Position numbers and translations under genes: made by a program. Under the pieces are notes generated by a model, which saw only the letters and a program-made list of their open reading frames with translations, ran no database searches and was not told where the DNA came from. A stretch of 64,000 nt of DNA from Bacteroidia bacterium (GTDB taxonomy: Bacteria > Bacteroidota > Bacteroidia > J057 > RFSG01), in the NCBI GenBank assembly GCA_040381555.1, contig JBEIHC010000001.1, forward strand, positions 3,091 to 67,090, given 5' to 3'. Of the stretch, positions 12,253 to 60,472 are shown in pieces; position 1 is the first letter of the stretch; each line of letters begins with the position of its first letter.

Positions 12253-12430
12253 ATTCTGTACTTATGAATAGGTAAAGATACTTCTCGGCTTGCTGCAAGC
12301 CAATTCAAAAAAAATAAAAATTCATAATATTCTATTTATGAGATAGTTAACTTCTATTTTTCATAAAATCAGAAAAATAATCAGAACTTCATGCAACCAT
12401 TTACCCCCAAACCCTCATTAGGTTTATAGA

Positions 12431-13866: not shown

Positions 13867-13897
13867 AATCATGTTCCTAAACCCTTAATTAAAATAT

Positions 13898-19542: not shown

Positions 19543-19656
19543 TTCCCTGTTAAAGTTTCCCCGGGATTTGGTACTTTTGTCTGAAACTGTGGGAAAGTTA
19601 TTCCAGAGACAGGTTCTGGTTCGTAATTTTGCCTAATCTCATTATTTTTGCACCCT

Positions 19657-35463: not shown

Positions 35464-35583
35464 TAAAGTATAAAGTTTAATAAACGAAGGGTAAATCTGG
35501 ATAGCGAAATGTCGGTTTCATTGCTATTCGGAATAGTTTTCGGCCAAACATCAAACTCTGTCTCTCCCCTCCCTGCCCTGAAA

Positions 35584-35655
35584 GGGCATTTTAGTTTGTC
35601 CTGCACTTTAGTGCAGGAAGGGTATTTTAGTTTGCCCGGCACTTCAGTGCCGGAC
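35584..35655 (-). terminator. Two tandem 36-bp hairpin modules immediately 3' of the minus-strand gene ending at 35670
   Basis: The units are gggcattttagtttgtcctgcactttagtgcaggaa and gggtattttagtttgcccggcacttcagtgccggac. The stems cctgcac/gtgcagg and ccggcac/gtgccgg differ by a compensatory pair. No U-tract follows, so the terminator role is tentative. Confidence 0.4.
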
Positions 35656-36699: not shown

Positions 36700-38505
36700 T
36701 CACCAAACGGTTTTATCCTGATCTATCGCAACCTGAGCTTCTGCGATTCCTTTAGAGGCCGCAACTTTCATCCAGCCTCTGGATTCGGATAATTTTCCTT
36801 GTTTCGCTAAAAGTAATGCCATTTGGTAATAAGCCTGGCCATTTGTACTATCAATGTTTAGGGCCTGATATAAGCTATGAGTGGCTAAGCTGTCTTGTCC
36901 GGTATTTTTGTAGGCTTCGGATAGCTGAATTCTATATCGGGCATTCTGTGGATACTCCTTAATACTTGCTCTGAAATAGTACAAAGCCGTGTCCCATTTC
37001 TGCTGATATAAGCTTGCCTGTGCCAATTCCGGATAATAGATTTCCGGTTCAGAAGATAAGCCTATCGCTTTGCGATACATGTTCTCGGCAGCGTAATATT
37101 TTCCTGCCTGTAAGAATGTCTTGCCCGCCCCGGTATAAGCTTGTATAGAATCGGGATATAATTCGGTAAGTTTTAAATAGAGTGGCAAGGCCTGATCCGA
37201 TTCTTGCCTGTTGTATCTGCTCTGCGCCAGATTGAAATTAGCGGCATAAATATCAGGATTGTAGCTTAAAATATCTCCATAAAAACTCTCATCATTTCTC
37301 CAGACTCTGATTCGATTTATCTGGATAGCAGAAAAAATAATAACAGTAAGGACGATAGCAATAGGTAATGAATTTCTTAATATCTGATATCTGTACCAGG
37401 CAATCCAGGAAAATTCGACAATCAGATACAGTAAGCCCAATCCTGCTATATAGTGATTTCGATCGGCCATGAGTGCCTGACCAGCAGGAAATAATTGTAA
37501 TACAGGTAGAATACAGACAAAGAAAAATAACCAGCCACTTAAGGTAACCCGACTAAAAGGTAAAATCTTAAAAAAGGTTATTAGCAGTCCAATCAATACA
37601 ACAGGCGCAAGGTAATCTCTCAATTCCGGGGATTCCGGGAAGGGATAAAAGGTTGATAATTGAATGGGCATTACCGTTCGGGAAATATAAAACACCAGAG
37701 CCCGGCATACAAATAGAAATTCCTGCCAATTGTGTAGGGTGCCGATTCGTCCTTCATTTAATTGAGCCAGAAAGGTAAACCAGACTAAAACAATTCCGAT
37801 AAAAAAAAATGGGAATTTCTCACTGATTGTATCCCTCCAGTTTATTTTCCTATTTTCCAGATAATCAATTAAAGGCAATAGTAAGGGTAAACTCATAGCC
37901 ATGGGTTTACATAAACAAGCCCAGACAAATCCAACTAAACTCAGTCGATAAAAATATTTATTTCCGCTGACCGTATAGCGGTAATAGAATAAAATGGAAA
38001 ACAAAAAACCAGCCGCATATAGTACATCCTTTCTTCCGTTTACCCAGGCAATACTTTCTGCATGCAGTGGGTGAATGCCGAAAAATAGTGCCACCATCCA
38101 TCCTTTGGTGCGATTATTTCCCAGTCTTCGAAATATTCTGTACACCAGCCAGACGTTGATTAAATGCCAGAATAGATTCTGTGCATGATAACTCAATGGA
38201 TTAAATCCACCTATTCGAAAATCCAGGGCAATACTTATGTCCACCAATGGATGATACCCTCCCTGGGTTGCGGAGGTAAATAATTTAAACAGACCAGAAA
38301 AATCTAAATTTCGGATTAATTCATTTTCTAGTACCAGTTGCTTATCCTCAATCCCAGCAAATCCATTCCACAAGGCTATCAAATTTACACTCAATACAAT
38401 CAGCAGAAGTATTACAATCGATGGACCTCTTTTACGGAGATATAAAGCAAATGAACTATCCGTAACAGAACCAGCAACCGTGGGAGAGGGGTGTAGGATT
38501 TTCAT
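36700..38505 (-). CDS. TMTC/DUF1736-like GT-C membrane glycosyltransferase fused to C-terminal TPR repeats (paralog 4, most divergent)
   Basis: Contains GGYHPLVDISIALDF and HPLHAESIAWVNGRKDVLY motifs, about 10 TM helices and C-terminal TPRs. The ATG at 38505 forms an ATGA overlap with the upstream paralog's stop. Confidence 0.75.
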   Translation of the reverse strand: MKILHPSPTVAGSVTDSSFALYLRKRGPSIVILLLIVLSVNLIALWNGFAGIEDKQLVLENELIRNLDFSGLFKLFTSATQGGYHPLVDISIALDFRIGGFNPLSYHAQNLFWHLINVWLVYRIFRRLGNNRTKGWMVALFFGIHPLHAESIAWVNGRKDVLYAAGFLFSILFYYRYTVSGNKYFYRLSLVGFVWACLCKPMAMSLPLLLPLIDYLENRKINWRDTISEKFPFFFIGIVLVWFTFLAQLNEGRIGTLHNWQEFLFVCRALVFYISRTVMPIQLSTFYPFPESPELRDYLAPVVLIGLLITFFKILPFSRVTLSGWLFFFVCILPVLQLFPAGQALMADRNHYIAGLGLLYLIVEFSWIAWYRYQILRNSLPIAIVLTVIIFSAIQINRIRVWRNDESFYGDILSYNPDIYAANFNLAQSRYNRQESDQALPLYLKLTELYPDSIQAYTGAGKTFLQAGKYYAAENMYRKAIGLSSEPEIYYPELAQASLYQQKWDTALYYFRASIKEYPQNARYRIQLSEAYKNTGQDSLATHSLYQALNIDSTNGQAYYQMALLLAKQGKLSESRGWMKVAASKGIAEAQVAIDQDKTVW

Positions 38506-40508
38506 CGGTTGGAATTTAACCACTGTTGTGCCGCACCATGACCTAAGGAGGCTGCTTTTTCAAAATTCGCCCGGGATTTTTGCTGATCCTTTAAGTAATA
38601 CCAGGTAACTCCCATATTAAAATAGGCATCTCTGAAATTTGGGTCTACCTGTAACGCCTTTTCATACCAAGATAAGGCTGTCTGATATTCCTTGCGGGAA
38701 AAATAGATTACTCCCATGTTTCCCATTGCATCCGGATAGTCAGGCTTCATTTCCAATGCCTTCTGATAGCAATATATACTGGAATCTGTTTTCTGAATCT
38801 GATAGTACAAATTCCCTAAATTATACCATACCCTTGGCTCATTTTCCTTAAGCCTTAAAGCCTCATTGTAGTGATAGGCTGCCTCGTTATATCTTCCTAA
38901 TTCATTTAATAGGGTCCCTAAATTATTATGGGGAGAGGGGTTATTGGGGTCAACTGACAATGATTTGTTGAATATACTTAACGCCTCTTCATATTTTCCT
39001 AAAGCCTGTAATGCAGTAGCCAGATTGTTATAAGTATCCGAATTGTTGGGATTCAATGTAATTGCCTTATAATACAGGGGAATTGCAGTTCCAGGTTGTC
39101 CATATTGATTTAGTAAAATCCCATAATTATTATAAGGTTCAAAATAGGATGAATCTATCGCCAAGGCTTTTTGATATAATTCCATTGCGCGCAGGTCACT
39201 TTCTTTTCCTGACTTTTCCAGTGAAACGCCTAAGTTAAATAATACAAAAGGTACATTCTGATTTTCTTTATAAGTATCTTCCCAAAGACTTTTGGAATCT
39301 TTCCATATACTTATTCGTGGAATTGTTAGGGTATATCCAATAACGATAAAGATTACCGATACTATCATGGAATATAGTTTGCCTGAAAATTTACTGAGTC
39401 TCCAGGCCAGCGCAATTGAAAATCCAATGGAGGCAAAATAAAAGTACCTATCGGCTGCAATTGCTTTCCCAACCGGAAGGATTTGTAGTACGATACTAAT
39501 TCCTATAAAGTAAAATAAGAAAGCGAGAATCCATTCAGGAAATTTCTTTCTAATCATCCATAATCCAACTACCAATCCGATGCTTAAAACAGGAGATAGA
39601 AGTAGTAGTATATTTTTTAAGGAGGGATACTCATAATGCGCGGATAAAGGGATAGGAAAAATAAACTTTTGAAGATAAAACCACACTCCATAGGATGGAT
39701 AGAGTATTTTGGCATAAAAGGGCAAGTTTCCTGTGTCTGTTCGAATAGCAGCTGCCTCGGCTTGAGCTAAAATAGCGACATAACCAAAAATTAAGCTTAC
39801 AATCAAGAACGGAAGAAATTTGGGATTTAAAATGTATTTGGGAATTTCTCTCCATTCTAATTTTCCTTCCTTTTCAATTTTTAAGGTGATACCAATCAAA
39901 ATAATAATTGGAGTTACCACCACGGCCATTCCTTTAGATAAACAGGCAAGGACTAAACAGAATATACTTAAACCCCAAAATATATTGGATTGACGCGTAT
40001 GCCAAAGATAGGCCATTAAAATGGATAAACTAGCAAACATAGTATATAAGACATCCTTTCTTTCTGCTATCCAGGCAACTGATTCCACATGTAATGGATG
40101 CAAGGAAAATAATAATCCTCCAGCCAATGATGCCCAAGGATTTTTAGTCCACATAACTAAAAGAATATATAGGATGAGGGAGGTCAGGCAATGGAGTAAA
40201 ATATTGGTCAAAATATATCCAGCGGGATCCTTACCCTGAAAGGAATAATCAATGGCGTAACTAATCATCGTTAAAGGATGATAATTTCCCATAAAGAACG
40301 ACTTGAATTCGTGGGAAATCATTTCCGTATTTAATTGTTGAATGCCTCTATTTTCACTTACATACGCTCTTTCATCATAATTGGTAAATTTATTATCTAA
40401 AGCGGGTTGATAGATGAAACCAGTTATTAAGATTAAAATCAATCCTCCTAACCAGGATAAATAAGGCGACTCGACAGTATCTTTTACCTGTATGTTTTTC
40501 TTTTTCAT
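38502..40508 (-). CDS. TMTC/DUF1736-like GT-C membrane glycosyltransferase fused to C-terminal TPR repeats (paralog 3)
   Basis: Contains YDERAYVSEN, GNYHPLTMISYAIDY and HPLHVESVAWIAERKDVLY, about 7 TPRs, and the terminal motif KAASLGHGAAQQWL. Confidence 0.8.
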   Translation of the reverse strand: MKKKNIQVKDTVESPYLSWLGGLILILITGFIYQPALDNKFTNYDERAYVSENRGIQQLNTEMISHEFKSFFMGNYHPLTMISYAIDYSFQGKDPAGYILTNILLHCLTSLILYILLVMWTKNPWASLAGGLLFSLHPLHVESVAWIAERKDVLYTMFASLSILMAYLWHTRQSNIFWGLSIFCLVLACLSKGMAVVVTPIIILIGITLKIEKEGKLEWREIPKYILNPKFLPFLIVSLIFGYVAILAQAEAAAIRTDTGNLPFYAKILYPSYGVWFYLQKFIFPIPLSAHYEYPSLKNILLLLSPVLSIGLVVGLWMIRKKFPEWILAFLFYFIGISIVLQILPVGKAIAADRYFYFASIGFSIALAWRLSKFSGKLYSMIVSVIFIVIGYTLTIPRISIWKDSKSLWEDTYKENQNVPFVLFNLGVSLEKSGKESDLRAMELYQKALAIDSSYFEPYNNYGILLNQYGQPGTAIPLYYKAITLNPNNSDTYNNLATALQALGKYEEALSIFNKSLSVDPNNPSPHNNLGTLLNELGRYNEAAYHYNEALRLKENEPRVWYNLGNLYYQIQKTDSSIYCYQKALEMKPDYPDAMGNMGVIYFSRKEYQTALSWYEKALQVDPNFRDAYFNMGVTWYYLKDQQKSRANFEKAASLGHGAAQQWLNSNR

Positions 40509-40514
40509 GTTGAA

Positions 40515-42353
40515 TTATGAATTTCCTCTTTGAGAAAGCCATTGTGATGCTTGCGTGTGGCCTAAGCCTGCCGCTTTTTGAATTGCCTCTACTCCTTCCT
40601 GATTTTTTCCGGATTGTAATCGCATCAATCCCAAGTTAAACCATGTACCTGAGTTTTCTGGATTGAGCAGAAGTGCACTATTGTATCTATTCTCAGCAGT
40701 GACAAAGTCCTGTTTCATGGCGGCAATATTTCCTAGATTTACATAGCATTCTGTTAAATCTGGATCATGTTCTATTGCTAGAATGAGATATTTTTCCGCG
40801 TCTGCTAAATTATTGGCTTCAGCTGACGCACTGCCCATTTTACTATATACAGTACCTATTTTTTTATAAACTACCTCATCGTCTGGACGAATAGTTAGGT
40901 ATTGTTTAAATGATTTTAGTGCTTGAGGATATTTTCCCAAATGGGTGTAATTATTCCCTAAGTTATGCCAGCCAATAGCATATTTAGGTCTAATACTCAA
41001 TGCTTTTTTATAAAGTGGTATGGCGAGCTCATATTTCTTGTCTTTTGTAAATTGGTTGGCTATATTATTGTATGCTACCGGAACATTCTCATGCTGGTGC
41101 ATGACATCCAGAAATAACGAATAGGTATTGTTCCAGATTTTTACTCTTTGATGACATAAATATCCTGAGGCAACTACTAATGTTGAGGCAAGCAGAATGG
41201 GAATTTTACTTGGTAAAGGCACTTGGGCAATTAACCAAGCCAATACCAAAAATAAACCGGCGGAGGGTAGGTAATAGTATCGTTCTGAAATCATGGTTTC
41301 TCCAACGGGCATAATTTGAAGTACGGGTAATATTGCAATAAAGAAGAATCCCATACCAAACCAAATGATTTTATGTTTTCTGGAAAAGTAAAGTATGAGC
41401 CCACTTAAAGCCAGCAATGCAAATGGTACTGCATAATATAAGTTAGGTAGGTTTCCACTTTCTTTGAGTGGGTAAGGATAATAAGCTGATTGAGCAATAG
41501 GAGCTATCGTTTTAGCTAAATACAGAAACAAGCCATATAGGGCTATTAAAAGTTGATCTAACCAAGTGTACTCTCGAAAAATTCTTACATTCCCTCCTTC
41601 TGTTTGGGCATCTATGGCAACCATGCCAATTATTAAGGACAGGACAAAATAGGGGGCAATAGATAGAAGCGATTTTATTTCTTTTAAGGTTTCCGGTTTT
41701 TCCCAAGCCGTAATTAATAGTGCTATTACAGGCATAATGACAGCCTGTGCTTTTGCCGTACAGGCTAGAAAAAATAGCACAAGGGATAGTATCCAATATT
41801 TTTGTCTTTCAGTTTTTATCCACTGATGCCAATATATTAATGATCCTAAAGTTCCACAAGTATAGAGCACATCTTTTCTTTCGGAAATCCAAGCAACAGA
41901 TTCTACATGCAAGGGATGAACAGCAAATAGGGCAGAGGCCACTACTGCAACGAAGGCGTTTTTTGTGAGTCGAATGCAGAGTATATAGAGTAGGGCGCTA
42001 TTTATTGCATGAAGGAGTATGTTGGTTGCATGAAATCCAGCAGGATTTAAATCAAATAATACTTTGTCAATGCTTAGACTAATCATGGTTAAGGGATGCC
42101 AATTCCCCATTACATATTTTCCCAATAAATATTTCCATCCTTCCCAGTTCCATTTGCCTAAATCCGGATTGTCATATACATAGCGATTGTCATCCCATTC
42201 GACAAAGTCATTACTCAGAGCTGCGAGATAGACCAAGATGGACAATGCAAATGGCACAAGCATCCATTTTCTTTCTTCTGTCCAAAAAGATGCTGTACTT
42301 GCTTCTGCTTTTTTACCAGTCTTATTTTCTGTTTTAAATTTTTGCTTTGCCAA
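40515..42353 (-). CDS. TMTC/DUF1736-like GT-C membrane glycosyltransferase fused to C-terminal TPR repeats (paralog 2)
   Basis: Contains WDDNRYVYDNP, GNWHPLTMISLSID and HPLHVESVAWISERKDVLY, TPRs, and the terminal motif KAAGLGHTQASQWL. Confidence 0.8.
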   Translation of the reverse strand: MAKQKFKTENKTGKKAEASTASFWTEERKWMLVPFALSILVYLAALSNDFVEWDDNRYVYDNPDLGKWNWEGWKYLLGKYVMGNWHPLTMISLSIDKVLFDLNPAGFHATNILLHAINSALLYILCIRLTKNAFVAVVASALFAVHPLHVESVAWISERKDVLYTCGTLGSLIYWHQWIKTERQKYWILSLVLFFLACTAKAQAVIMPVIALLITAWEKPETLKEIKSLLSIAPYFVLSLIIGMVAIDAQTEGGNVRIFREYTWLDQLLIALYGLFLYLAKTIAPIAQSAYYPYPLKESGNLPNLYYAVPFALLALSGLILYFSRKHKIIWFGMGFFFIAILPVLQIMPVGETMISERYYYLPSAGLFLVLAWLIAQVPLPSKIPILLASTLVVASGYLCHQRVKIWNNTYSLFLDVMHQHENVPVAYNNIANQFTKDKKYELAIPLYKKALSIRPKYAIGWHNLGNNYTHLGKYPQALKSFKQYLTIRPDDEVVYKKIGTVYSKMGSASAEANNLADAEKYLILAIEHDPDLTECYVNLGNIAAMKQDFVTAENRYNSALLLNPENSGTWFNLGLMRLQSGKNQEGVEAIQKAAGLGHTQASQWLSQRGNS

Positions 42354-42416
42354 TTTATCCTTGTTATTGCTGATACTTTATTTTCTAGTGGAATATTTCG
42401 AAAGTAATTAAATGTA

Positions 42417-44294
42417 TTACCAACCTATTCCTTGACTTTTTAGGAAATCTATCGCAGGGGCATGTCCTAGTCTTGCTGCCTTTTTATACGATTCAACTGC
42501 CTGGTCTTTGTTTCCCATACTTTGTAAGGCAATGCCTGCATTAAACCAAGCTCCTCCGAAATTTGGATTAAGTGCAATAGCTTTCTGAAATAGTTCTAAT
42601 GCTTTCGTGTTATTCCCCATCATTCCATAACTGGATCCTTCATTATTATAGGCATCGGCATACTCGGGTTTTAATCGTATGGCTTCCTCAAAGGATTGAA
42701 TGGCTTCTGTGTATTTTCCCATCATGCTGTAAGTACTCCCCAGATTATTAAAGGCCGTCTCATTTTTGGGATTGAGTTTTATGGATTTGGTTAAATATAG
42801 TTCCGATGAATCAAATTGCTGCATCATACTAAAATTATATCCCATATTGTTATACGCTTCTGCCATTTCGGGTGCTAGTTGAATGGCTTGGGTTAATAAA
42901 ATTTTGGCACTGTCATATTTTCCTAAATGGCTGAGTGTGTAACCTCCATCATTGTATTGGTCTGGATAATCAGGATTTTCTTGTATACCTTTTATATACA
43001 CATCTGCAGCTTCTCTTTTCCGATTCTGTTTTTCCAAATATCTTCCTAGGTTGACAAATGCAAAATCAACAGAAGGATCTTTTTTGATGATATGGGTAAA
43101 AAATGTTTCTGTGTTTTTCCATATCCCAATTTGCTGGTAACTTAAAATTCCCCAGAATATGGCAATTCCTACTCCAGTTAATAAGGCAATTCTCTCTTTC
43201 AATTTCGTGGCAATCACCCAGGCTACTAGAAGGCCTAATCCCAAGCCCGGAAGGTAAAAGTATCTGTCTGCTGCAATGGCATTACCAACGGGTAAAAATT
43301 GCGCAACCGGAAGTAGATGGATTAAATAAAAACTAAGACCAAAGAATATAATTTTTTCTTTTTTCCAACTTGCCAATAGAATATAAAGGAGTAAGGTAAT
43401 TCCAGCGAGGCTTAAATACCAGATACCCGATAAAGGAGCTTCGGGATAAGGATAAAATGGAACTAATGGATAAGGGAAAATAAATTTTGGCAAATAGAAG
43501 AGTAAACTCCCACAACCCAGTAGTAGTTGTTCCCCTATATTGAAGGCTTCGGAGCTGCGGATATTGCCCCCAGATTTTTGGGCATAGATGGCTATAATTC
43601 CAAAAACAAGAGATAAAAGAATGCTGAACAAAAGCGGTATGTTTTTAAATAATTCCTTCGGTTTACTTCCTAAGAATAGTTCAATAAGGATAATTGCCAA
43701 TGGAAGGGTTACGGCTTGTCCTTTGGAAAGACAAGATAAAATAAAGAGTGCCATCATAACGATAATGTCCTTCATTTTTCCTGATTCACGATACAATAGC
43801 CAAAAGGATAGGGAGGCGAGGTAGAAGAATCCGTACAATACATCTTTCCTTTCAGTGACCCAAGCTACGGACTCCACTTTCAGAGGATGTAACCCAAAAA
43901 ATAGGGCTGCCAGCAGCGCCATGGGTAGATTTTGGGTTAATTGATGTATTACTCTCAATGCCAGCAGGGTGGTTCCAATATGGAGAGCGAGATTGGTTAG
44001 GTGGTATAATTTGGGTTCTATTCCAGCTATAGAGAATTCAATTGCATAGGATAAAATCACTAAAGGGTGATAATTACCCATGACAAAATTTCTGAAAATA
44101 TCCTGTATGGCAGTCCAGGTAAGATTGCGTATCAGTGGATTTTCGTAGACATACACATTGTCATCCCAGGAAAGAAAGTTTAAGTTTTGAACAGACCAGA
44201 ATGCCAATAGTATCCCCAAAAAAGTACCTGAGTAGGCGATTAAAGGTGTTAACTGGCTCTTTGTCGATTTCTTTTTCATTGGTATGTTTTTCAT
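42417..44294 (-). CDS. TMTC/DUF1736-like GT-C membrane glycosyltransferase fused to C-terminal TPR repeats (paralog 1)
   Basis: Contains WDDNVYVYENP, GNYHPLVILSYAIEF and HPLKVESVAWVTERKDVLY, TPRs, and the terminal motif KAARLGHAPAIDFL. Confidence 0.8.
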   Translation of the reverse strand: MKNIPMKKKSTKSQLTPLIAYSGTFLGILLAFWSVQNLNFLSWDDNVYVYENPLIRNLTWTAIQDIFRNFVMGNYHPLVILSYAIEFSIAGIEPKLYHLTNLALHIGTTLLALRVIHQLTQNLPMALLAALFFGLHPLKVESVAWVTERKDVLYGFFYLASLSFWLLYRESGKMKDIIVMMALFILSCLSKGQAVTLPLAIILIELFLGSKPKELFKNIPLLFSILLSLVFGIIAIYAQKSGGNIRSSEAFNIGEQLLLGCGSLLFYLPKFIFPYPLVPFYPYPEAPLSGIWYLSLAGITLLLYILLASWKKEKIIFFGLSFYLIHLLPVAQFLPVGNAIAADRYFYLPGLGLGLLVAWVIATKLKERIALLTGVGIAIFWGILSYQQIGIWKNTETFFTHIIKKDPSVDFAFVNLGRYLEKQNRKREAADVYIKGIQENPDYPDQYNDGGYTLSHLGKYDSAKILLTQAIQLAPEMAEAYNNMGYNFSMMQQFDSSELYLTKSIKLNPKNETAFNNLGSTYSMMGKYTEAIQSFEEAIRLKPEYADAYNNEGSSYGMMGNNTKALELFQKAIALNPNFGGAWFNAGIALQSMGNKDQAVESYKKAARLGHAPAIDFLKSQGIGW

Positions 44295-52180: not shown

Positions 52181-53464
52181 ATGAAGTATTTTTTTCGTGC
52201 ACTCGTCTTACCTATTTGTCTGATTTTTTCAGCAAACATTCTGCCTGCACAAACTCCCGATTGTGACCAAACTCCAATTGCGTGTATGTTGGACAGTCTG
52301 CTGAGCAACTATCAGTACAAGGTAAAGACCCGGATGAATAACCGAAACACAGTAAAAAATACTTTTGGGTATGCAGAAACAGATGTTCCAAGCGCTGAAC
52401 CTCAGGTAATCAAAGATAGAATGCGTCGCTTGGGTTATGAGATACCTTTGAATTACAATCCCCAAGTTCAGTCATTTATCGATTTGTATACCGTTCGTCG
52501 TCGAGATCAGGTTGAGAAAATATTAGGATTGATGCCTGTTTACTTTCCCATTTTTGAGGAAGTATTTGACAAGGCAGGTATTCCTATGGAAATTAAATAC
52601 CTTTCAATTGTGGAGAGTGCTCTCAATCCTCATGCAATTTCCAGAGTAGGAGCTACTGGTGCTTGGCAGTTCATGTATTATACTGCCCGATTGTATAATT
52701 TAAATATTGATACTTATGTCGATGAACGCCGCGATCCACACAAATCCGCCGTTGCTGCAGCAGAGTATTTTAAAAACATGTACCGTATCTACAAAGATTG
52801 GCATTTGGTTATTGCCGCTTATAATTGTGGTCCAGGAAATGTAAACAAGGCTATTCGTCGCTCTGGAGGGAAAACAAATTTTTGGGAGATTAGCCCTTAT
52901 CTACCAGCAGAAACACGGGGGTATGTGCCAGCCTTTATGGCTGCTTGTTATGTATTTAATTATTCTGCGGAACATAATCTATACGCTCAACAGGTAGATT
53001 TTTCCTACCATCAAGATACCTTACACATCGTGCAATGCAAATTGAATTTGAAAGAATTAGCGGCAACATCCGGTGTTGAATATGAATTACTCAAAAGCCT
53101 CAATCCTGAATTGAAAACGGATTTTGTGCCTTATTCTGAAAAGGGGTATGTATTGAGAGTGCCTGCTAAAATTTCACAAATTGCCGCTTCAAATCCGGAG
53201 CAAGTTTATAAGTCCAGTGTGGCTCCGGTTGAAACACCCACGCTCGCCTCCAATTCTACTGACGCATCCGATAGCCGCCAATTAGTAAGTGGAAAAGGAA
53301 ATCTTACCTATTACACAGTAAAATCAGGAGATGTGGTTGGTAATATCGCGAAGAAATATGGGGTGACAGCCTCTCAAATTGCCCAATGGAATGGTTTAAG
53401 AGCCTATCGAATTAATCCAGGACAAAGGTTAAAGATATATCCGCGTACCCAATACAAAGGATAA
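52181..53464 (+). CDS. Lytic transglycosylase (MltD-like) with a C-terminal LysM domain
   Basis: SLT motif SIVESALNPHAISRVGATGAWQFM and LysM YYTVKSGDVVGNIAKKYGVTASQIAQWNGL. Confidence 0.88.
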   Translation: MKYFFRALVLPICLIFSANILPAQTPDCDQTPIACMLDSLLSNYQYKVKTRMNNRNTVKNTFGYAETDVPSAEPQVIKDRMRRLGYEIPLNYNPQVQSFIDLYTVRRRDQVEKILGLMPVYFPIFEEVFDKAGIPMEIKYLSIVESALNPHAISRVGATGAWQFMYYTARLYNLNIDTYVDERRDPHKSAVAAAEYFKNMYRIYKDWHLVIAAYNCGPGNVNKAIRRSGGKTNFWEISPYLPAETRGYVPAFMAACYVFNYSAEHNLYAQQVDFSYHQDTLHIVQCKLNLKELAATSGVEYELLKSLNPELKTDFVPYSEKGYVLRVPAKISQIAASNPEQVYKSSVAPVETPTLASNSTDASDSRQLVSGKGNLTYYTVKSGDVVGNIAKKYGVTASQIAQWNGLRAYRINPGQRLKIYPRTQYKG

Positions 53465-53615
53465 TAATAAGAGTATTTATTTAGTGCTTATACAGAAAGT
53501 ATAAATATTTACTACTACTGAATCTCAGGTTTTTGCGTTATTCAAGTAAAAGGAATAAGTGCATAAACCGCTAAAATCAATTCTTTTTTCAAAGAATCCA
53601 GTATCCCAACCTTCG

Positions 53616-53815
53616 GTTTAGGGTAAACTTCAGTTTAGGGTAAACTTCAGTTTAGGGTAAACCTCCGTTTAGGGTAAACTTCCGTTTAGGGTAAACTTCC
53701 GTTTAGGGTAAACTTCCGTTTAGGGTAAACCTCTGTTTAGGGTAAACCTCTGTTTAGGGTAAACCCCGGTTTAGGGTAAACCTCGGTTTAGGGTAAACTT
53801 CCGTTTAGGGTAAAC
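53616..53815. repeat. Tandem array 1: 12 perfect copies of GTTTAGGGTAAAC at a 17-bp period with pyrimidine-rich 4-nt spacers
   Basis: Cores start at 53616 and recur every 17 nt up to 53803. Spacers are ttca, ttca, ctcc, ttcc, ttcc, ttcc, ctct, ctct, cccg, ctcg, ttcc. The array ends 4 nt before the yggS stop codon. Confidence 0.97.
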
Positions 53816-53819
53816 CTTA

Positions 53820-54500
53820 CTATTTCCTTCTGCCGAAAATGGCAGATCCAATTCTCACCATTGTTGCACCCTCTGCTATCGCTATTGCATAGTCTGAACT
53901 CATTCCCATACTCAATTCTGTCAAGGACACATTTCCTCCATTCATAGAGCTTAATTCTTTCAATAGGTTTCTTAAACCTGAAAATTGAGAACGAATCAAT
54001 TGCTGATCCTCTGTCAAAGCAGCCATGCCCATTAAGCCACAAAATTGTATGTTGGGATATAAGGTGGCTTCTTCAAGAATTTTTCTGGCTTCTTCCGGGC
54101 TCATGCCAGATTTGGTCGCTTCCCCTGAAATGAATAGTTGAAGTAATACCGAAATGCTTCGATTGTTCACTGCCGCTTCTTTTTGAATCACCTGCAGTAA
54201 TTTCTCACTATCTACTGAATGAATCATATAGATAAAGGGAGCAATAAATTTTACTTTGTTCGTCTGTAAATGCCCAATCAAATGCCATCTGGCATTGGAT
54301 ATTTCTGCTTGTTTTAGCACCAATTCCTGAACTTTATTTTCTCCCAGATCTAATTGGCCTAACTCAATTACTTTCCGAATATCTTCCACCGGATAGGTTT
54401 TGCTCACTGCAATAAGCTTGACCGAATGGGGCACTCGACCGCTTAAATTTTCCAGGTTCCGGATTTTTTCCTGAACTTCCAACAAGGGATGTAGAACCAT
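53820..54500 (-). CDS. yggS: YggS family pyridoxal-phosphate homeostasis protein
   Basis: PLP-lysine context LIAVSKTYP, HLIGHLQTNKVK, and C-terminal MVRIGSAIFG. Confidence 0.9.
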   Translation of the reverse strand: MVLHPLLEVQEKIRNLENLSGRVPHSVKLIAVSKTYPVEDIRKVIELGQLDLGENKVQELVLKQAEISNARWHLIGHLQTNKVKFIAPFIYMIHSVDSEKLLQVIQKEAAVNNRSISVLLQLFISGEATKSGMSPEEARKILEEATLYPNIQFCGLMGMAALTEDQQLIRSQFSGLRNLLKELSSMNGGNVSLTELSMGMSSDYAIAIAEGATMVRIGSAIFGRRK

Positions 54501-54503
54501 AAA

Positions 54504-55490
54504 TTATTCTTCTAAAGGATTGTACCAGGATAACAATTGAAAGACTAAAGAAAGTAAAAATAAAACCAGGCCAGCCTTAATGAAGAATGGATATTGATCT
54601 TCTACTCTTCGATCGTTTTCTCCTGCACTCAGGCTTTTTTCCAACTGGTTAATTTCATTAAACACTTTTGTGAGCATTTGAGGTTCACTGGCACGATAAA
54701 AATTTCCACCCGTTAGGGTAGATATTTTCTGTAAGGTTTGAATATCTAAGTCAGTCTTTTGAGTGACTAACCCTTTTCCTGGCTCTTTAACCAGAAATTC
54801 TTCTTTCCCAACTCCAACAGTATAAATCCGAATGCCCCTGCTAGCAGCTAGTCTGGCTGAATTGAGTGGATCTAATTTTCCTCTATTATTGGCCCCATCA
54901 GTTACAAGAATGATGATTTTTGAAATGCTTTTAGATTCTTCGAATCGATTAATCGAAACGGCAATGGCCGACCCCATAGCTGTTCCTTCTTTAGGCAGGA
55001 TTCCAATTTTTAACTGCTCCAGTAACTGCAGTAATAAATCATGGTCCATAGTTAAGGGTGCATATGTAAAAGCATCTTCTGCAAATATCACTAGGTTGAT
55101 TCGATCGGAAGGTCTTGCTTGAATAAATTCCTTGCATACCTGCTTTGCCGCTTCTAATCTATTAGGCTCAAAGTCTTCTGTTTCCATAGAAGCAGAGGTG
55201 TCGAGGATTAGCGAGATGTCAATTCCAGAATCTTCTCGTAGCAGTAATTCTCCGGCAGATTGAGGCCTAGCCAGAGCCAATATCCAGCAAGAGATGGCTA
55301 ATATTCGAACACTGATAGGTACCCACCGAAGAATTGAATTGATGGATCCTCTTTTTTGAATTATTTCAGGGTCGTAGCTTAAAGAAATTCTCAGTCTTTT
55401 TTCCGGGTACACCAACAAAAACCAAGATACCCATCCCAATAAAGGAAGCAAGAGCAAAAGAAACCAAGGATGTTCAAAGGTTAGATTCAT
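54504..55490 (-). CDS. batA: VWA domain membrane protein (BatA-like)
   Basis: N-terminal TM helices, MIDAS motif ILDTSASM, and a C-terminal TM helix. Confidence 0.85.
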   Translation of the reverse strand: MNLTFEHPWFLLLLLPLLGWVSWFLLVYPEKRLRISLSYDPEIIQKRGSINSILRWVPISVRILAISCWILALARPQSAGELLLREDSGIDISLILDTSASMETEDFEPNRLEAAKQVCKEFIQARPSDRINLVIFAEDAFTYAPLTMDHDLLLQLLEQLKIGILPKEGTAMGSAIAVSINRFEESKSISKIIILVTDGANNRGKLDPLNSARLAASRGIRIYTVGVGKEEFLVKEPGKGLVTQKTDLDIQTLQKISTLTGGNFYRASEPQMLTKVFNEINQLEKSLSAGENDRRVEDQYPFFIKAGLVLFLLSLVFQLLSWYNPLEE

Positions 55491-56395
55491 ATCCGGATTT
55501 CTTCTACGAGTTGATGCTTTTTACGAAGTAATAATTGAAGGGCGTTTTGCTTTAATTCCTCTCCTTGAAATGATATGGGTGTTTGGCCTGCATAAATAAT
55601 CGAATCTGCCAGTGTGGATAGTTTCAGCAAAAACTGAAGATCTTCAGAAACTAGCTGATTGGGGAATTGGATTTTCTTGAGTTCGGGTGTGCTTAAACTT
55701 TCCAATCGGATGGGCAGATTATTAGAATAATAAGAACGAAATAATTGGTTGAGCGAATAAATGAATTCCTCTTGATAATCAGGGGACAAGCTTTCAATTT
55801 TCTTTCGAATTTGATTGAATTCACTTTGTATTTTTCTCTTTGCCAGGTATTTTAGAATAGGCTTATAGGCGAAATAGACTGTTAGGCCAAGGAGGAGAAT
55901 TCCGATTAAAATAAGTAAAAGCCAGCCTGAATAATCCGGGGGGGCGTGTACCGCTAATAAGTCTTCATGAGCTTTTACCTGTAGGCTATCTTTATTTTCG
56001 GGTAATCGGGAAATGAGCTTAAAAGAATCTTTTAGAATAAGTGTTTTAAGGGTGTCTTGTTTGGAAAGGAGTATGAACGGAAGACTGAGAATTTGTTTTG
56101 GCGCGATTTCAAAAGATCTGAATTCATAAAAAAAGCTATCAACCTGATTAGATCCTATTGTGTTAGAGGAGAGTTCTTTTCGGATATACTCATAGGGTTT
56201 GAATGCTTGTGAGGTATCTGGGAAAATTACTTTTTGATTGCGGTTATATTTAATCCAACCTTTTACCTGCACAGGGTATCCTAAAGCAGCTGTATCTGCA
56301 AGCAACTGCATTTCTCCTTGCAATTGGGCAGATACCTGATTGGACAGGCCATAAATCAGCAACCAAAAAATATATTTATTTAGAATGTGCTGCAT
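55487..56395 (-). CDS. Hypothetical single-pass membrane protein in the DUF58/BatA operon
   Basis: Signal peptide from MQHILNKYIFWLLIYGLSNQVSAQ and central TM helix WLLLILIGILLLGLTVYF. Its position between DUF58 and BatA is typical of small Bat-operon membrane proteins. Confidence 0.5.
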   Translation of the reverse strand: MQHILNKYIFWLLIYGLSNQVSAQLQGEMQLLADTAALGYPVQVKGWIKYNRNQKVIFPDTSQAFKPYEYIRKELSSNTIGSNQVDSFFYEFRSFEIAPKQILSLPFILLSKQDTLKTLILKDSFKLISRLPENKDSLQVKAHEDLLAVHAPPDYSGWLLLILIGILLLGLTVYFAYKPILKYLAKRKIQSEFNQIRKKIESLSPDYQEEFIYSLNQLFRSYYSNNLPIRLESLSTPELKKIQFPNQLVSEDLQFLLKLSTLADSIIYAGQTPISFQGEELKQNALQLLLRKKHQLVEEIRI

Positions 56396-57317
56396 GCAGT
56401 TGTTGGAAAAATTTCCCCAATACAGGGACATAGTCTTTGGAAGTATCTATAGAAAGCAGAAACACATGCTTTTGACGACTAATTTCTTCCAGGTTTTTTT
56501 GAATACTGTCGAGATAGGTTTTAGAGTTTCGAGCAAATAAGTTTCCACCTGCACTGAGCCAGCGAATGATGCCGGCTTCATTGTCTCTAACAGGAAGAAT
56601 GCCTTCTCGATGATTTATAATTTCAGAAGGGTGGTAGAGTCGGATTAATATCACTTCATGTCGGCGCGATAATTTTCGAATACTTTCTTCATAGCCTGCA
56701 TCCATGAAGTCTGAAATAACAATAACAACAGATCTTTTTTTCTGAATGCTTCTAAAAAATTCTAGTGCTTGTTTGAGATTGGTTTTTGCATGTGCAGCTT
56801 GGAATTCCAGCATATTACTCATCATAGATAAAATATGCGAGCGTCCTTTGACTGGGCGATAAAATTTTTCCACCTGATCTGAAAAAAGCAACAGTCCGAA
56901 ACGGTCATTGTTTTTCATAGCTGAGTAAGCAAATATTGCAGCTAACTCTGTGGCAATTTCTTTTTTGTTTTGTCCTTCAATACCAAAATCCAGTGATCCG
57001 CTCGTGTCCAGAATGACAAACAATTCTTGTTCTCTTTCTTCTCTAAATAATTTTACATAGACAGTGTCACTTCTTGCTGTTACATTCCAATCAATGGAGC
57101 GAATATCATCTCCAAATTGATAGGCTCGTACTTCATCAAATTCAAGACCTTGCCCTCGAAATGCAGAGCGATATTCACCCGCAAACGAGGAATCCACGAT
57201 TCTCCGGATTTTGATATCCAGCTTTTTGACTTTATGAAGAATCTCTTTCACGGGGAAGCAGGACAAAATTCGTATTTTTGCAGGTATATAACAATGTTTG
57301 GAACTTTTTCCCTCCAT
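56376..57317 (-). CDS. DUF58 domain protein (MoxR-associated VWA-like)
   Basis: The DDIRSIDWNVTAR motif is characteristic of DUF58. Confidence 0.85.
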   Translation of the reverse strand: MEGKSSKHCYIPAKIRILSCFPVKEILHKVKKLDIKIRRIVDSSFAGEYRSAFRGQGLEFDEVRAYQFGDDIRSIDWNVTARSDTVYVKLFREEREQELFVILDTSGSLDFGIEGQNKKEIATELAAIFAYSAMKNNDRFGLLLFSDQVEKFYRPVKGRSHILSMMSNMLEFQAAHAKTNLKQALEFFRSIQKKRSVVIVISDFMDAGYEESIRKLSRRHEVILIRLYHPSEIINHREGILPVRDNEAGIIRWLSAGGNLFARNSKTYLDSIQKNLEEISRQKHVFLLSIDTSKDYVPVLGKFFQQLHAAHSK

Positions 57318-57327
57318 TAAAAATTAA

Positions 57328-57747
57328 ATGCATGGATTTAAATTATTGAGGGTGCAGGATTTATCTGTAAATTTATTTTTAGGGGTACTATTGAATTTGG
57401 TTCTTTTCCTCTTCGGATGCGGGGAGAAGCAGGCTTCAACCGTTATGGCTGCAGAATCATTTAGGCCTTTACTCAAAGAAATGCTGATTGCGGAGAGTGG
57501 GGTAGAGGCTCTGCCTTTAAGTTACACGGAAAAAAAGGAAGCTCGTGAACAGAGGTATCGGCTTATTTTTCAAAATGCAGGTATATCCGCTGAAGATTTT
57601 TTTAACAGCTTTGAGTATTATCGTATGCAACCAGAAATAATGGACACCCTGTATGCCCATATTCTGGATGAGTTAAACGAATCACTCATGCAGCAGCGTA
57701 TGACCATCAACCCAGGTTTGGATTCTAGTCTCCTCAATCGTCCATGA
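57328..57747 (+). CDS. DUF4296-like small lipoprotein
   Basis: Lipobox LFLFGCG. The family assignment, based on the FFNSFEYYRMQPEIMDTLYAHILDEL region, is from memory. Confidence 0.45.
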   Translation: MHGFKLLRVQDLSVNLFLGVLLNLVLFLFGCGEKQASTVMAAESFRPLLKEMLIAESGVEALPLSYTEKKEAREQRYRLIFQNAGISAEDFFNSFEYYRMQPEIMDTLYAHILDELNESLMQQRMTINPGLDSSLLNRP

Positions 57748-60125
57748 AGGTTTATCCTCCAGACGCAGCAGAACGCTTAGGCTTTGATACCATACTTCGG
57801 GAATTAGCGCGTTTATCGGAGACTGATCCTATCCGAGAACAATTTTTGCATCTTCAGCCCAGTCATAATCCTTTATTAATTCGGGAGAGCCTGGTTCAGA
57901 CCAAAGCCTATATGCGCTTATTGATGCAGGCTGAGTATCCCAGAGATATTGTTTTTAGAGAGATTCAGCCTTATCTGAAAAAAGCTCTTCCCCAAAATGC
58001 CTGGTTGAGTGCAGAAGAGATTTTTAGAGTCATTTTATGGTTGCGAACTTTAAGAGTGTTATTGGCTTTTATAGAAAAAAAGAAGGATGATTTTCCAGAA
58101 TTGTTGGCTTTAATTCCTGCTGCTGAGCGTCCATTTGGCTTGCAGGAATTTTTGGCGGGTCATTTTACCTCAGAAGGTCAATTAAAAGATAATGCCAGTC
58201 CTGAGTTAGGTCGCTTGCGAAAAGGTATTTTGGAAACGGGGCATAAAGTAAGGCGACTAACCGAAAAAATACACAAAGCAGCCAGGGATCAAGGCTGGTC
58301 GGATGCTCGAGAGGTAAGTATTCGCAATAATCGTCTGGTTATCCCCTTGAATGCCGATTTCAAAGGACGGATTGAAGGATTTGTGCAGGATGTTTCTCAG
58401 TCGGGACAGACTATTTTTATAGAGCCCGCGGAGGCTCTTCCGCTTAACAATGAATTGAGTTTATTGCAGCTCAAAGAGAGGCAGGAGATTATTCGAATTT
58501 TGACCGATTTGACAGATCATCTACGAGCAAAAATGCCGGAGTTGAAGGTTTGGGAAGAATGGTTACAAAAAATGGAGATTTTGCAGGCTCGGGCTAAGTT
58601 TTCGACTAAAATTCAAGCAGATATTCCCCAGTTAGATCCCTCAGGTGATTGCCTGAAAATTGTTCAAGGCCGAAATCCATTACTAGTTCTGCAAATTCAG
58701 CAGGCGGTTGTGCCTTTAGATTTAGATTTGAACCGTCAGCAAAGGATATTATTGATTTCGGGACCGAATGCGGGCGGGAAATCTGTTGCGTTAAAAACGG
58801 CTGGGATATTACAATGGATGGTACAATGCGGATTACCAGTTCCCGCCGATTCCTCTTCCATTTTTCCTGTATTAGCTTCTTTGTTTACAGTTGTAGGGGA
58901 TGGGCAGTCGATTGAAAATGATCTAAGTACTTATACGGCACATTTAAGTCATATGCGGTATTTGTTGGAGCGAGCCCATGAGTCCTCTTTATTTTTGATA
59001 GATGAGTTTGGTTCGGGAACGGATCCCCGTTCAGGAGGACCCATTGCAGTGGCTTTGTTGGAGGCGCTCGTTGAACAAGGCGCGCTTGGTATTGTTACAA
59101 CACATTATAGTGATTTAAAGCAACTTGCGCGTCGAAATCCTGCTGTTCGGAATGCTGCCATGCATTTTGATTTGAAAGATTTTAAGCCTTCTTATCAGCT
59201 GGAAATGGGGCATGCCGGAAGTAGTTATGCTTTTGAAATTGCCCGGAAAGCCGGAATTCCGGAATCTGTACTTCGAAGGGGAAAGACCCTAATGGGAAAG
59301 GCACCTGCGGAAACGGAAGAATTATTAACCGCCTTAAATCGAGACAAGGAAGAGATACTTAAGCTACAGGAGAAATTAGGAATTGAATCTCTGGAGAATC
59401 AAAAAATAAGGGATAAATTAAATCAGGCGGAAAGAGAAGCCAAGGAGAAAGTCAGGAAACTAATTGCCGATGCACGCGAGCAGGCTAGGGGAATGTTAAC
59501 CGAAGCTTCCAAAAAAATTGGAGAATTAGTTCAGGAAACGAGGGAGAAGCAATTAGAAAAAAAGGTTGCCAAAAGCATACAGAAGGAATTGATGAGTTTT
59601 ATTCCGGATATTGATCAGGGAGAGGAAGTTTTTCTGGAGCCAATACCTGGATTTAAAGAAGTAATCGGAGTAGATCCTGTTATAGGAGATCGGGTAAAAT
59701 GGTTCAGTACCGGTGCAATTGGTAGGGTGCTGGATATTCTGAATGGAAGATTTGTTATTGCCTTTGGAGATATTCGAACCTCTTTGAAAAGAGAAGAGAT
59801 TATTCTCTTAAAAACGGAAGAAGATATTTCTAAAATTAAGGTAGAAATTTCTGCGCAAACTCGAGCTGATCATAAAATGAATGCGACAATCACTTTGGAT
59901 ATTCGGGGTCAAAGAATGGAACCTGCGCAATTGATGTTGCAAAAATTTCTAGATGATGCTTTTGTGAATGGCTTGCCTTTCGTTCATATTATCCATGGAA
60001 AGGGAAATGGGATTTTAAGAACCATGACTCGGGATATGTTGAAACGGGCACCTGGGGTGAAGCGGGTAGAAGAACCGCCCATTGAGCAGGGCGGGGCAGG
60101 GGCAACGGATGCTTATTTTAATTGA
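57744..60125 (+). CDS. mutS2: Endonuclease MutS2 (MutS domain V plus C-terminal Smr)
   Basis: Walker A GPNAGGKS, DEFGSGTDP, and a C-terminal Smr domain (LDIRGQRMEPA...IIHGKGNGILR). Confidence 0.93.
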   Translation: MKVYPPDAAERLGFDTILRELARLSETDPIREQFLHLQPSHNPLLIRESLVQTKAYMRLLMQAEYPRDIVFREIQPYLKKALPQNAWLSAEEIFRVILWLRTLRVLLAFIEKKKDDFPELLALIPAAERPFGLQEFLAGHFTSEGQLKDNASPELGRLRKGILETGHKVRRLTEKIHKAARDQGWSDAREVSIRNNRLVIPLNADFKGRIEGFVQDVSQSGQTIFIEPAEALPLNNELSLLQLKERQEIIRILTDLTDHLRAKMPELKVWEEWLQKMEILQARAKFSTKIQADIPQLDPSGDCLKIVQGRNPLLVLQIQQAVVPLDLDLNRQQRILLISGPNAGGKSVALKTAGILQWMVQCGLPVPADSSSIFPVLASLFTVVGDGQSIENDLSTYTAHLSHMRYLLERAHESSLFLIDEFGSGTDPRSGGPIAVALLEALVEQGALGIVTTHYSDLKQLARRNPAVRNAAMHFDLKDFKPSYQLEMGHAGSSYAFEIARKAGIPESVLRRGKTLMGKAPAETEELLTALNRDKEEILKLQEKLGIESLENQKIRDKLNQAEREAKEKVRKLIADAREQARGMLTEASKKIGELVQETREKQLEKKVAKSIQKELMSFIPDIDQGEEVFLEPIPGFKEVIGVDPVIGDRVKWFSTGAIGRVLDILNGRFVIAFGDIRTSLKREEIILLKTEEDISKIKVEISAQTRADHKMNATITLDIRGQRMEPAQLMLQKFLDDAFVNGLPFVHIIHGKGNGILRTMTRDMLKRAPGVKRVEEPPIEQGGAGATDAYFN

Positions 60126-60191
60126 TTTTTTGGGGGTATTCCCCAATACCTGACTCGTATTTTTTTGAACCCAACTCTTGACCTCTAATAG

Positions 60192-60391
60192 GTTTAGGGT
60201 AAACTGAGGTTTAGGGTAAACGGAAGTTTAGGGTAAACGGGAGTTTAGGGTAAACGGAGGTTTAGGGTAAACGGAAGTTTAGGGTAAACGGGAGTTTAGG
60301 GTAAACTGAGGTTTAGGGTAAACGGAAGTTTAGGGTAAACGGAAGTTTAGGGTAAACGGGAGTTTAGGGTAAACGGAGGTTTAGGGTAAAC
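60192..60391. repeat. Tandem array 2: 12 perfect copies of GTTTAGGGTAAAC at a 17-bp period with purine-rich 4-nt spacers
   Basis: Cores start at 60192 and recur every 17 nt up to 60379. Spacers are tgag, ggaa, ggga, ggag, ggaa, ggga, tgag, ggaa, ggaa, ggga, ggag. The array lies between the mutS2 stop (60125) and the adhesin ATG (60484). Confidence 0.97.
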
Positions 60392-60464: not shown

Positions 60465-60472
60465 TAAATTTG
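60465..60472 (+). promoter_or_regulatory. Bacteroidota -7 box candidate (TAAATTTG)
   Basis: Matches TAnnTTTG and ends 11 nt before the ATG at 60484. Confidence 0.35.

Follow-up and report, generated by a model that had tools for sequence, protein, structure and literature searches.

Do two tandem arrays of the same short repeat, standing at the two borders of a block of genes, form a purpose-built pair, or are they two loci of a repeat that grows and shrinks by itself? The question is raised by a 64,000-nucleotide (nt) stretch of a Bacteroidia bacterium (assembly GCA_040381555.1, contig JBEIHC010000001.1, positions 3,091 to 67,090), which we refer to throughout as the window. In it, two arrays of a 17-bp unit, array 1 and array 2, bracket a 6.4-kb block, and a preliminary description had presented them as a matched pair that might be bridged by a protein or serve as recombination substrates. 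In our favoured reading, to which we give a probability of about 0.42, the arrays would be two loci of one lineage-specific, hypervariable 17-bp minisatellite, similar in kind to the STAR elements of staphylococci, with a unit that is a putative protein-binding site. We conclude that the symmetry of the window arrays is coincidental, that their polarity needs no special design, and that the unit itself is genuinely constrained.

Tandem Repeats Finder and exact searches place 12 cores of GTTTAGGGTAAAC in each array, all 24 identical, all on the plus strand and all in a strict 17-bp period (Table 1), in agreement with the preliminary description of 12 plus 12 identical cores with the GGG centre pointing the same way. 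Each unit consists of a 13-bp dyad-symmetric core, GTTTA-GGG-TAAAC, and a spacer of 4 nt whose sequence is N-G-R-R on one strand. The spacers of array 1 are, in order, ttca, ttca, ctcc, ttcc, ttcc, ttcc, ctct, ctct, cccg, ctcg and ttcc; those of array 2 are tgag, ggaa, ggga, ggag, ggaa, ggga, tgag, ggaa, ggaa, ggga and ggag. Purines thus occupy 4 of the 44 positions in the 11 internal spacers of array 1 and 42 of 44 in array 2, and two spacers recur in both arrays as reverse complements (ggaa/ttcc and ggag/ctcc), a kinship that had been recognized earlier. When up to two mismatches are allowed, the core matches 25 times in the window, compared to 1.8 matches expected from shuffled sequences; the sole extra match, at 11347, carries two mismatches and we take it as chance.

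The two arrays occupy different kinds of intergenic space. Array 1 is placed between the convergent SLT-LysM and yggS genes, with its end 4 nt from the yggS stop codon, and array 2 starts 67 nt past the mutS2 stop and ends 93 nt ahead of the ATG of a sprB-like gene. Within array 1, identical spacers adjoin one another more often than expected by chance (P=0.024). Array 2 repeats at a higher order, in that a stretch of 64 bp recurs within it at a distance of seven units, and the last unit of this array forms with the flank an extended near-palindrome, GGAG-GTTTA-GGG-TAAAC-C-CTCC. The flanks of the two arrays show no similarity in any orientation (P>0.4). Because the flanks share nothing, we rule out an origin by segmental duplication, and likewise a MITE (miniature inverted-repeat transposable element) with a leader and a tail.

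We collected relatives at graded distance through exact-protein look-ups of independent assemblies. The MutS2 proteins of named Bacteroidia and Cytophagales are just 36-40% identical to that of the window, and the source is therefore a poorly sampled deep lineage. Both array sites are present in ERR9973195 (99.8-99.9% nt identity), three contigs of which start or end inside arrays: site 1 is found in L041 and L001 and site 2 in L001 and L042, L001 being exactly the 6.4-kb block. One spacer in this assembly differs, reading gaaa for ggaa. ERR12084935 (L047; 98.3% nt identity) carries array 1 with a left junction 4 nt shorter and a first spacer of cccg. At greater distance, the JGI contig Ga0335305_1106193 (L048; JGI 3300032322; 91.6% nt identity) contains array 1 assembled in full, and ENA ERZ28593802 scaffold_183 (L046; 89.7% nt identity) covers both sites. 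The L046 scaffold has a gap followed by the last unit of array 1 at site 1, and it retains the near-palindrome at the end of array 2. Four other independent assemblies have the arrays between these same flanks, so the arrays are real and not an assembly artefact. Moreover, the preliminary description had left it to comparison whether relatives keep arrays at both borders; they do so from 99.9% to about 90% nt identity, and the arrays are real and paired down to species-to-genus depth.

The approximately 90% identical lineage shows which features of the window arrays last. Its site 1 array has 13 units (L048), and its array 2 has only 3, reading GTTTAGAGTAAAC ggaa core ggag core with a GAG centre in the first unit (L046). 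Five of the 13 cores in L048 are mutated (GTTTAGTGTAAGC, GTTTAGGTTAAAC, GCTTAGGGTAAAC, GTTTAGGGTAAGT and GTTTAGGGTAAAG), mostly at the array edges (units 1, 12 and 13), and the order of the spacers is wholly unlike that in the window. The 12-to-12 match and the identity of all 24 cores, both stressed in the preliminary description, are therefore accidents of the window strain. With copy number ranging from 3 to 13 across lineages, spacer order turning over and identical neighbouring units standing in runs, units are shown to be gained and lost through slipped-strand mispairing. Unit counts from short-read assemblies, possibly including the 12 and 12 of the window, are uncertain because the arrays break such assemblies. 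The L046 scaffold has N-gaps exactly at array 1 (12991-13091) and just upstream of the sprB-like gene (19586-19685), and Logan contigs (k=31) break off inside both arrays, which systematically fragment short-read assemblies.

Relatives at about 70% nt identity (MutS2 59-76% identical; L036-L040 and L043-L045) retain the block and most of the synteny, and not one copy of the core was found in them. The arrays are therefore younger than the block. Within 261 kb of clade sequence the core is confined to the two array sites. Block order and orientation are the same in every contig examined, and a block that was excised, inverted, duplicated or amplified was never seen in these contigs. Divergence between the window and L046 is also uniform (89.4% identity in the left flank, 90.5% in the block and 88.5% in the right flank), which rules out the block as a separately exchanged cassette.

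Against this turnover, the unit itself changes in a restricted manner. Mutational steps within the arrays number 14 or more over the 4 positions of the spacer and 7 over the 13 of the core (binomial P=3e-5); the window taken alone has 8 steps, every one of them in a spacer. Read in the purine sense, the 39 spacers conform to N-G-R-R, with no pyrimidine at positions 2-4. All 10 changes inferred at positions 2-4 are transitions, whereas at position 1 only 1 is a transition and 4 are transversions (Fisher P=0.0037), so the purine/pyrimidine character itself appears to be maintained. The window and the approximately 90% lineage share one core consensus at both arrays (P about 0.012 under the flank rate), and between the same two the non-coding array flanks are 84% identical overall and 78% identical for the array 1 flank. 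Concerted evolution alone would allow the consensus to drift at the neutral rate. Finally, the 17-bp phase is held in 40 of 40 complete units from four assembled arrays, despite homopolymer runs (C5 and G-runs). Overall, the fixed core consensus, the strict phase and the purine-only spacer positions 2-4 indicate statistically that the 17-bp unit is under sequence constraint.

The dyad does not appear to act through nucleic-acid structure. A single unit forms only a weak hairpin, of -0.6 to -2.3 kcal/mol whether folded as DNA or as RNA, and the RNA fold of a whole array has at best a slight margin in stability over shuffled sequences (z=-0.9 for array 2 and z=-2.2 for the array 1 region). Because hairpins and folds are this marginal, the dyad is better explained by two-fold protein recognition. 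The same energies rule out a terminator or an RNA-stabilising hairpin as the main role, and the arrays show no T tract and no call in a terminator scan. A canonical G-quadruplex is also ruled out, as neither array has on either strand a motif of four tracts of three or more G with loops of 1-7 nt.

From the constraint we infer, with less than even confidence, that each unit may be recognised by a DNA-binding protein that is sequence-specific and probably dimeric. Copies of such a protein would load next to one another at fixed phase along the array, in the manner of iteron or centromere arrays (ParR on parC; PMC2241845), and the coated arrays could mark the 3' boundaries of two outward-facing operons. 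Array 2 also lies just upstream of the putative promoter of the sprB-like adhesin gene, whose expression could be altered if the number of units changed from 3 to 12. An effect of unit number is conceivable because array 2 lies upstream of a conserved TAAATTTG box, at a distance of about 70-270 bp.

Several points weigh against this protein-binding reading. The binding protein is so far hypothetical, and no candidate regulator gene was gained alongside the arrays in the region compared. Array 1 sits between two convergent 3' ends, where there is no promoter to regulate. If the GGG centre and the GRR spacer were read jointly by one protein, its binding to the two configurations could not be equal. 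Mutations in the core are tolerated, as 5 of the 13 units in L048 have them, and in one lineage array 2 has dwindled to 3 units. The statistics behind the constraint draw on few independent events and on two lineages, and the distribution of the core is known from the 64-kb window and the 261 kb of clade sequence.

A serious, if on balance unlikely, competitor is a selfish or neutral minisatellite with no host function. Perfect, hairpin-prone units would then out-replicate mutated ones by molecular drive, spacers would mutate faster and mostly by transitions because they lie single-stranded in hairpin loops, and any effects on neighbouring genes would be incidental. The hypervariable copy number and spacer order fit this account, as do the edge location of mutated cores in L048, which is that of ordinary variable-number tandem repeats (VNTRs), and the fact that relatives at about 70% identity have the same genes and lack the arrays. 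A different palindromic-core array in the mutS2-sprB spacer of L038 points to repeated origin within the clade, and all changes at spacer positions 2-4 are transitions. The restriction on the unit is harder to accommodate: the consensus is unchanged at both sites even though the non-coding flanks differ by 16-22%, and transversions occur at spacer position 1 but not at positions 2-4. Hairpin drive would permit compensatory arm changes and a free GGG centre, neither of which the consensus shows, and it would have to work through very weak hairpins. Length variants are likewise absent from the 40 complete units despite C5 and G-runs.

What, then, of the polarity? The GGG centre lies on the same strand in both arrays and the spacers on opposite strands; this discordance is kept in both lineages, with site 1 pyrimidine-rich and site 2 purine-rich in each. 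The observation of direct GGG with opposite spacer polarity thus extends to relatives, and the purine/pyrimidine character of the spacers is itself apparently constrained. The arms GTTTA and TAAAC are mutually reverse complementary, and inverting a segment bounded by arms alters only what stands between them. Because the core arms are self-complementary, the discordance needs only a founder effect. In the founder unit, one flip of the 3-nt centre or the 4-nt spacer, followed by amplification through slippage, would fix the whole array, and the state would be inherited thereafter. Alternatively, a longer palindrome could have expanded in either of two registers, with a purine spacer plus core yielding array 2 and a core plus pyrimidine spacer yielding the array 1 type, in the same GGG orientation. 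The left flank of array 1 (TTCG) lacks the purine half that palindrome expansion predicts. The preliminary description had argued that a single duplication or inversion cannot produce this pattern; this was overstated, since one centre or spacer flip in a founder unit plus slippage suffices. The polarity discordance is one binary fact, worth one bit of information.

In the sense of the adjoining outward-facing operon, both arrays read NGRR. This agreement at two sites is a 1-in-2 coincidence, and it keeps an RNA-level reading alive. We consider that reading improbable. It holds that the arrays act as 3' untranslated regions (UTRs) of both outward-facing operons, where UAAAC-NGRR-GUUUA modules with purine-rich tetraloops would form a repeated protein-binding or stability element of a sponge-like kind and the CCC/GGG centre would be a mere linker. 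Array 1 begins 4 nt past the yggS stop on the minus strand and array 2 67 nt past the mutS2 stop on the plus strand, spacer polarity is the same relative to each upstream operon and remains so in the approximately 90% lineage, and loop positions 2-4 are purine-only. Staphylococcus STAR-type repeats are reported to lengthen 3' UTRs with a regulatory effect. On the other side, the module hairpins are marginal (-1.5 to -2.3 kcal/mol), the whole fold of array 2 is no better than shuffles, and a terminator-like hairpin stands between mutS2 and array 2. Only some of the loops are GNRA or contain GGA, Rfam yields no match, and two-site agreement in polarity carries the modest weight already given.

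More doubtful still is a combined proposal in which the 17-bp unit bears two independently selected asymmetry marks, GGG set by chromosome strand and GRR set by operon direction. The unit would then be the cis-site of an undescribed Bacteroidota system, either an array-coating protein that bridges or insulates, or an RNA-binding factor titrated by arrays of purine-loop hairpins in two 3' UTRs.

We think it very unlikely that the arrays are a matched pair joined by a bridging protein that loops out or insulates the 6.4-kb block as a chromosomal domain. Both arrays do persist at both borders to about 90% identity, the core occurs at only two sites in 261 kb, and the 5-3-5 dyad has the geometry bound by dimeric proteins; we presume a resemblance to matS/MatP, which is not a test. 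Yet the array sizes are unmatched (13 and 3), the block genes and their synteny are older than the arrays and the same in lineages without them, and the bracketed genes have unrelated housekeeping functions. Recombination substrates for excision, inversion or amplification of the block, or mobile-element ends, can be set aside as highly improbable: the arrays are 79% identical as direct and 74-76% identical as inverted repeats at once, but their longest exact shared runs (15 bp direct, 14 bp inverted) fall below the roughly 20-30 bp that RecA-dependent exchange usually needs, the 64 kb contain no recombinase or transposase, block order and orientation are constant in the contigs examined and none of these shows the block excised, inverted or duplicated, divergence is uniform across flanks and block, and the unrelated flanks carry no target-site-like duplications.

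Among described repeats, STAR elements are the closest in kind, and BrickBuilt is the closest within Bacteroidota. Staphylococcus STAR elements are interspersed intergenic direct repeats whose loci expand and contract and whose variable spacers are locus-specific and conserved by lineage; their positions are kept within a species group and lost between more distant species (PMC3532100). No function is known for them, and the authors argue that selective or molecular forces maintain them (PMC3532100). Our arrays share the alternation of a constant short repeat with variable spacers, the intergenic placement, the expansion and contraction (12 and 13 units at site 1, 12 and 3 at site 2), the retention of position in close lineages only, and a locus-specific spacer character conserved by lineage. 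They differ in phylum and in an unrelated sequence, in a 17-bp period with 4-nt spacers, compared to the tens of nt of STAR spacers, and a 5-3-5 dyad core, and in occupying two loci (in the 64-kb window and the 261 kb of clade sequence) with opposite spacer polarity relative to the core.

BrickBuilt, a minisatellite/MITE of Porphyromonas gingivalis, is a species-restricted tandem repeat that is always intergenic, tens to hundreds of nt from coding sequences, and present at several loci per genome (PMC4596501). Its units are 23 nt long with no intervening spacers, its leader and tail subunits are conserved and end in inverted repeats, and it carries promoter elements (PMC4596501). In contrast, the flanks of the window arrays have no common leader or tail and share nothing, and we read no Bacteroidetes promoter motif in the unit by eye. 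The arrays differ from both STAR and BrickBuilt in sequence, in a constrained 4-nt spacer, in the 5-3-5 dyad, in unshared flanks and in opposite spacer polarity.

Partition centromeres offer a plausible model for how the arrays might act. The iterons of parC in plasmid R1 stand in two separate sets of five, and about one ParR dimer binds to each iteron (PMC2241845). The likeness to parC/ParR and tubC/TubR drawn in the preliminary description stands for tandem, short, identical sites at a fixed 17-bp phase; it fails for the genes and the setting. Pfam analysis of every window open reading frame (ORF) of at least 100 aa found no parR/parM, tubR/tubZ or ParA/ParB gene, and the arrays sit among housekeeping chromosomal genes that are syntenic in relatives, with no match to array 2 by BLAST in 72,556 plasmids or in phages. 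They are also 6.4 kb apart, do not flank one promoter, and vary in copy number between lineages.

Repetitive extragenic palindromic (REP) sequences and their clusters (bacterial interspersed mosaic elements, BIMEs) are short palindromic extragenic units that gather at gene 3' ends and between convergent genes (PMC3733652), and the window arrays share these features. REPs measure 20-40 nt, bear GTAG or CGTC as a tag and usually form clusters in which the orientation alternates (PMC3733652), unlike the 13-nt untagged core in strictly direct tandem seen here; no gene for a REP-associated tyrosine transposase (RAYT, Y1 type) is visible in the window. For replication-origin iterons, we found no Rep or DnaA gene in the window and no DnaA boxes or AT-rich unwinding element around the arrays. 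A 13-nt repeat with 4-nt spacers is far from the approximately 23-50 nt repeats and 26-72 nt spacers of CRISPR, and no cas genes are present. Transposon ends or an invertible segment find no counterpart either, given the constant block orientation, the greater age of the block and the lack of recombinase and transposase genes.

Searches of public collections returned little. An exact core dimer gave 0 matches in GTDB species genomes. With the generalised pattern GTTTANNNTAAAC N4 GTTTANNNTAAAC, the genomes and JGI metagenomes showed nothing beyond chance dimers and a handful of unrelated plain tandem repeats, and IMG/VR showed 0 matches. The L048 JGI contig carries the array, with many pattern matches, and was missed; the collections are therefore incomplete, and these negatives are weak evidence. 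Rfam, at gathering and at permissive thresholds, gave nothing beyond a chance match to RAGATH-12 (E=0.59), located in the gap between SLT-LysM and array 1 (window 53459-53555, plus strand; 17.3 bits against a gathering threshold of 75). A literature search for the core sequence found no paper.

The surroundings are those of an ordinary Bacteroidota chromosomal stretch. By ORFs and Pfam, the order is SLT-LysM (+), array 1, yggS/BatA-VWA/314-aa protein/DUF58 (-), DUF4296/MutS2-Smr (+), array 2 and a long SprB/PKD/CHU_C surface protein (+). The 6.4-kb block therefore consists of two divergent operons with one array just past the 3' end of each. Pfam agrees with the housekeeping-like identities that had been proposed for the bracketed genes and confirms that the 64 kb hold no integrase, transposase, Rep, ParA/B or cas gene.

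Table 1. Arrays and neighbouring features, in window coordinates.
Feature	Position	Strand	Remarks
Array 1	53616..53815	+	12 x (GTTTAGGGTAAAC + 4-nt pyrimidine-rich spacer YYCN)
Array 2	60192..60391	+	12 x (GTTTAGGGTAAAC + 4-nt purine-rich spacer NGRR)
Outward-facing operon, DUF58 to YggS-like	53820..57317	-	3' end adjoins array 1; order kept in all relatives
YggS-like PLP protein (YggS/Ala_racemase_N)	53820-54500	-	Pfam
BatA/VWA gene	54504-55490	-	Pfam
314-aa protein	55487-56431	-	Inside BatA/DUF58 operon; no Pfam domain
DUF58 gene	56376-57317	-	Pfam
Outward-facing operon, DUF4296 and MutS2/Smr	57328..60125	+	3' end precedes array 2
DUF4296 gene	57328-57747	+	Pfam
MutS2/Smr gene	57744-60125	+	Pfam
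Non-repeat spacer, SLT-LysM stop to array 1	53465..53615	.	151 bp; 78% identical in the approximately 90% lineage
Terminator-like hairpin TTGGGG-gtatt-CCCCAA	60130..60166	+	T7 run at a distance; read from sequence, seen in RNA fold
TAAATTTG, -7 promoter match	60465..60472	+	Sequence; about 12 nt upstream of sprB-like ATG (60484)

A simple scan did not call the hairpin downstream of mutS2 a terminator, and its terminator role is putative. The Bacteroidetes -7 promoter consensus is TAnnTTTG, and TAAATTTG fits it, presumably as the promoter of the sprB-like gene; a GTAAATTTGAT motif upstream of this gene is kept in L036, L037, L038 and L040. The 151-bp spacer to the left of array 1 is absent from the 72% identical relative L036, where the whole intergenic gap measures 26 bp. 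The domainless protein of the yggS operon keeps its position in all relatives, at a length of 285-314 aa.

The relatives without arrays show further variation at both borders. The left border is a rearrangement hot spot in them (L039:2814-6005; L040:1-1500; L043:1-4132). L039 has two added genes between SLT-LysM and yggS, encoding a 111-aa protein and a CarboxypepD_reg/Plug receptor, and the lineage of L040 and L043-45 has an unrelated 250-aa gene in place of yggS, with MutL, rhomboid, DUF6576 and Exo_endo_phos genes as left neighbours. At the right border, the mutS2-sprB spacer of L038 (9585-9677; MutS2 67% identical) holds another array, with a 16-bp period, about 5.8 copies and a palindromic core CTTGGTCCAAG plus a TYCSG spacer; in its last two units, CTAGGTACTAG, the change T3A/A9T is compensatory and leaves the dyad intact. 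The mutS2-sprB spacer thus seems prone to arrays of this kind. The L038 contig itself begins (1-49) within a 23-bp tandem repeat (CCCCCAAAACCGTATGCSGCATA), which lies about 150 bp upstream of tatA and includes the palindrome GTATGC-S-GCATAC; here, too, a repeat with a palindromic core interrupts an assembly of the clade. As to whether the core arose from GTTT-units downstream of mutS2 in L036 and L037, two alignments disagree (one automated, one anchored by eye on ATAG).

Elsewhere in the window, a 36-bp unit (AAGGGCATTTTAGTTTGCCCGGCACTTCAGTGCAGG) is repeated twice at 35582-35654 with an 86% match, between ORFs ending at 34844 and 35670; it is not related to the 17-bp arrays. Four successive minus-strand paralogues of 607, 668, 612 and 625 aa occupy 36700-44294 and all have C-terminal TPR repeats. 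The 607- and 612-aa members also have a PMT_2 glycosyltransferase domain, and more PMT_2/TMEM260-like genes lie at 26209-27861 and 33021-34844. Cumulative GC skew reaches a minimum near 12-14 kb (12000-14500), at a switch in gene orientation between 11797-12252 (-) and 12431-13000 (+). From there to 64 kb the plus strand is G-rich, and this is the strand that bears GGG in both arrays. The switch could be replication-related or merely a gene-strand effect.

If the arrays are merely a constrained minisatellite, they exemplify how self-complementary arms make arrays look direct and inverted at once, and they would be usable as a strain-typing locus. They are also a practical warning, as they break k=31 assemblies and leave scaffold gaps exactly at both borders of the block. 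Were the reading with two asymmetry marks true, they would define a novel class of elements, serving as chromosomal boundaries or as sponges and tolerant of changes in copy number. If the unit is a protein-binding site, as we tentatively favour, the arrays would constitute a chromosomal iteron-like array system in a deep uncultured lineage of Bacteroidota. The chromosome-organising and RNA-binding factors of this phylum are poorly known, and the core together with NGRR would serve as a direct bait for such a factor.

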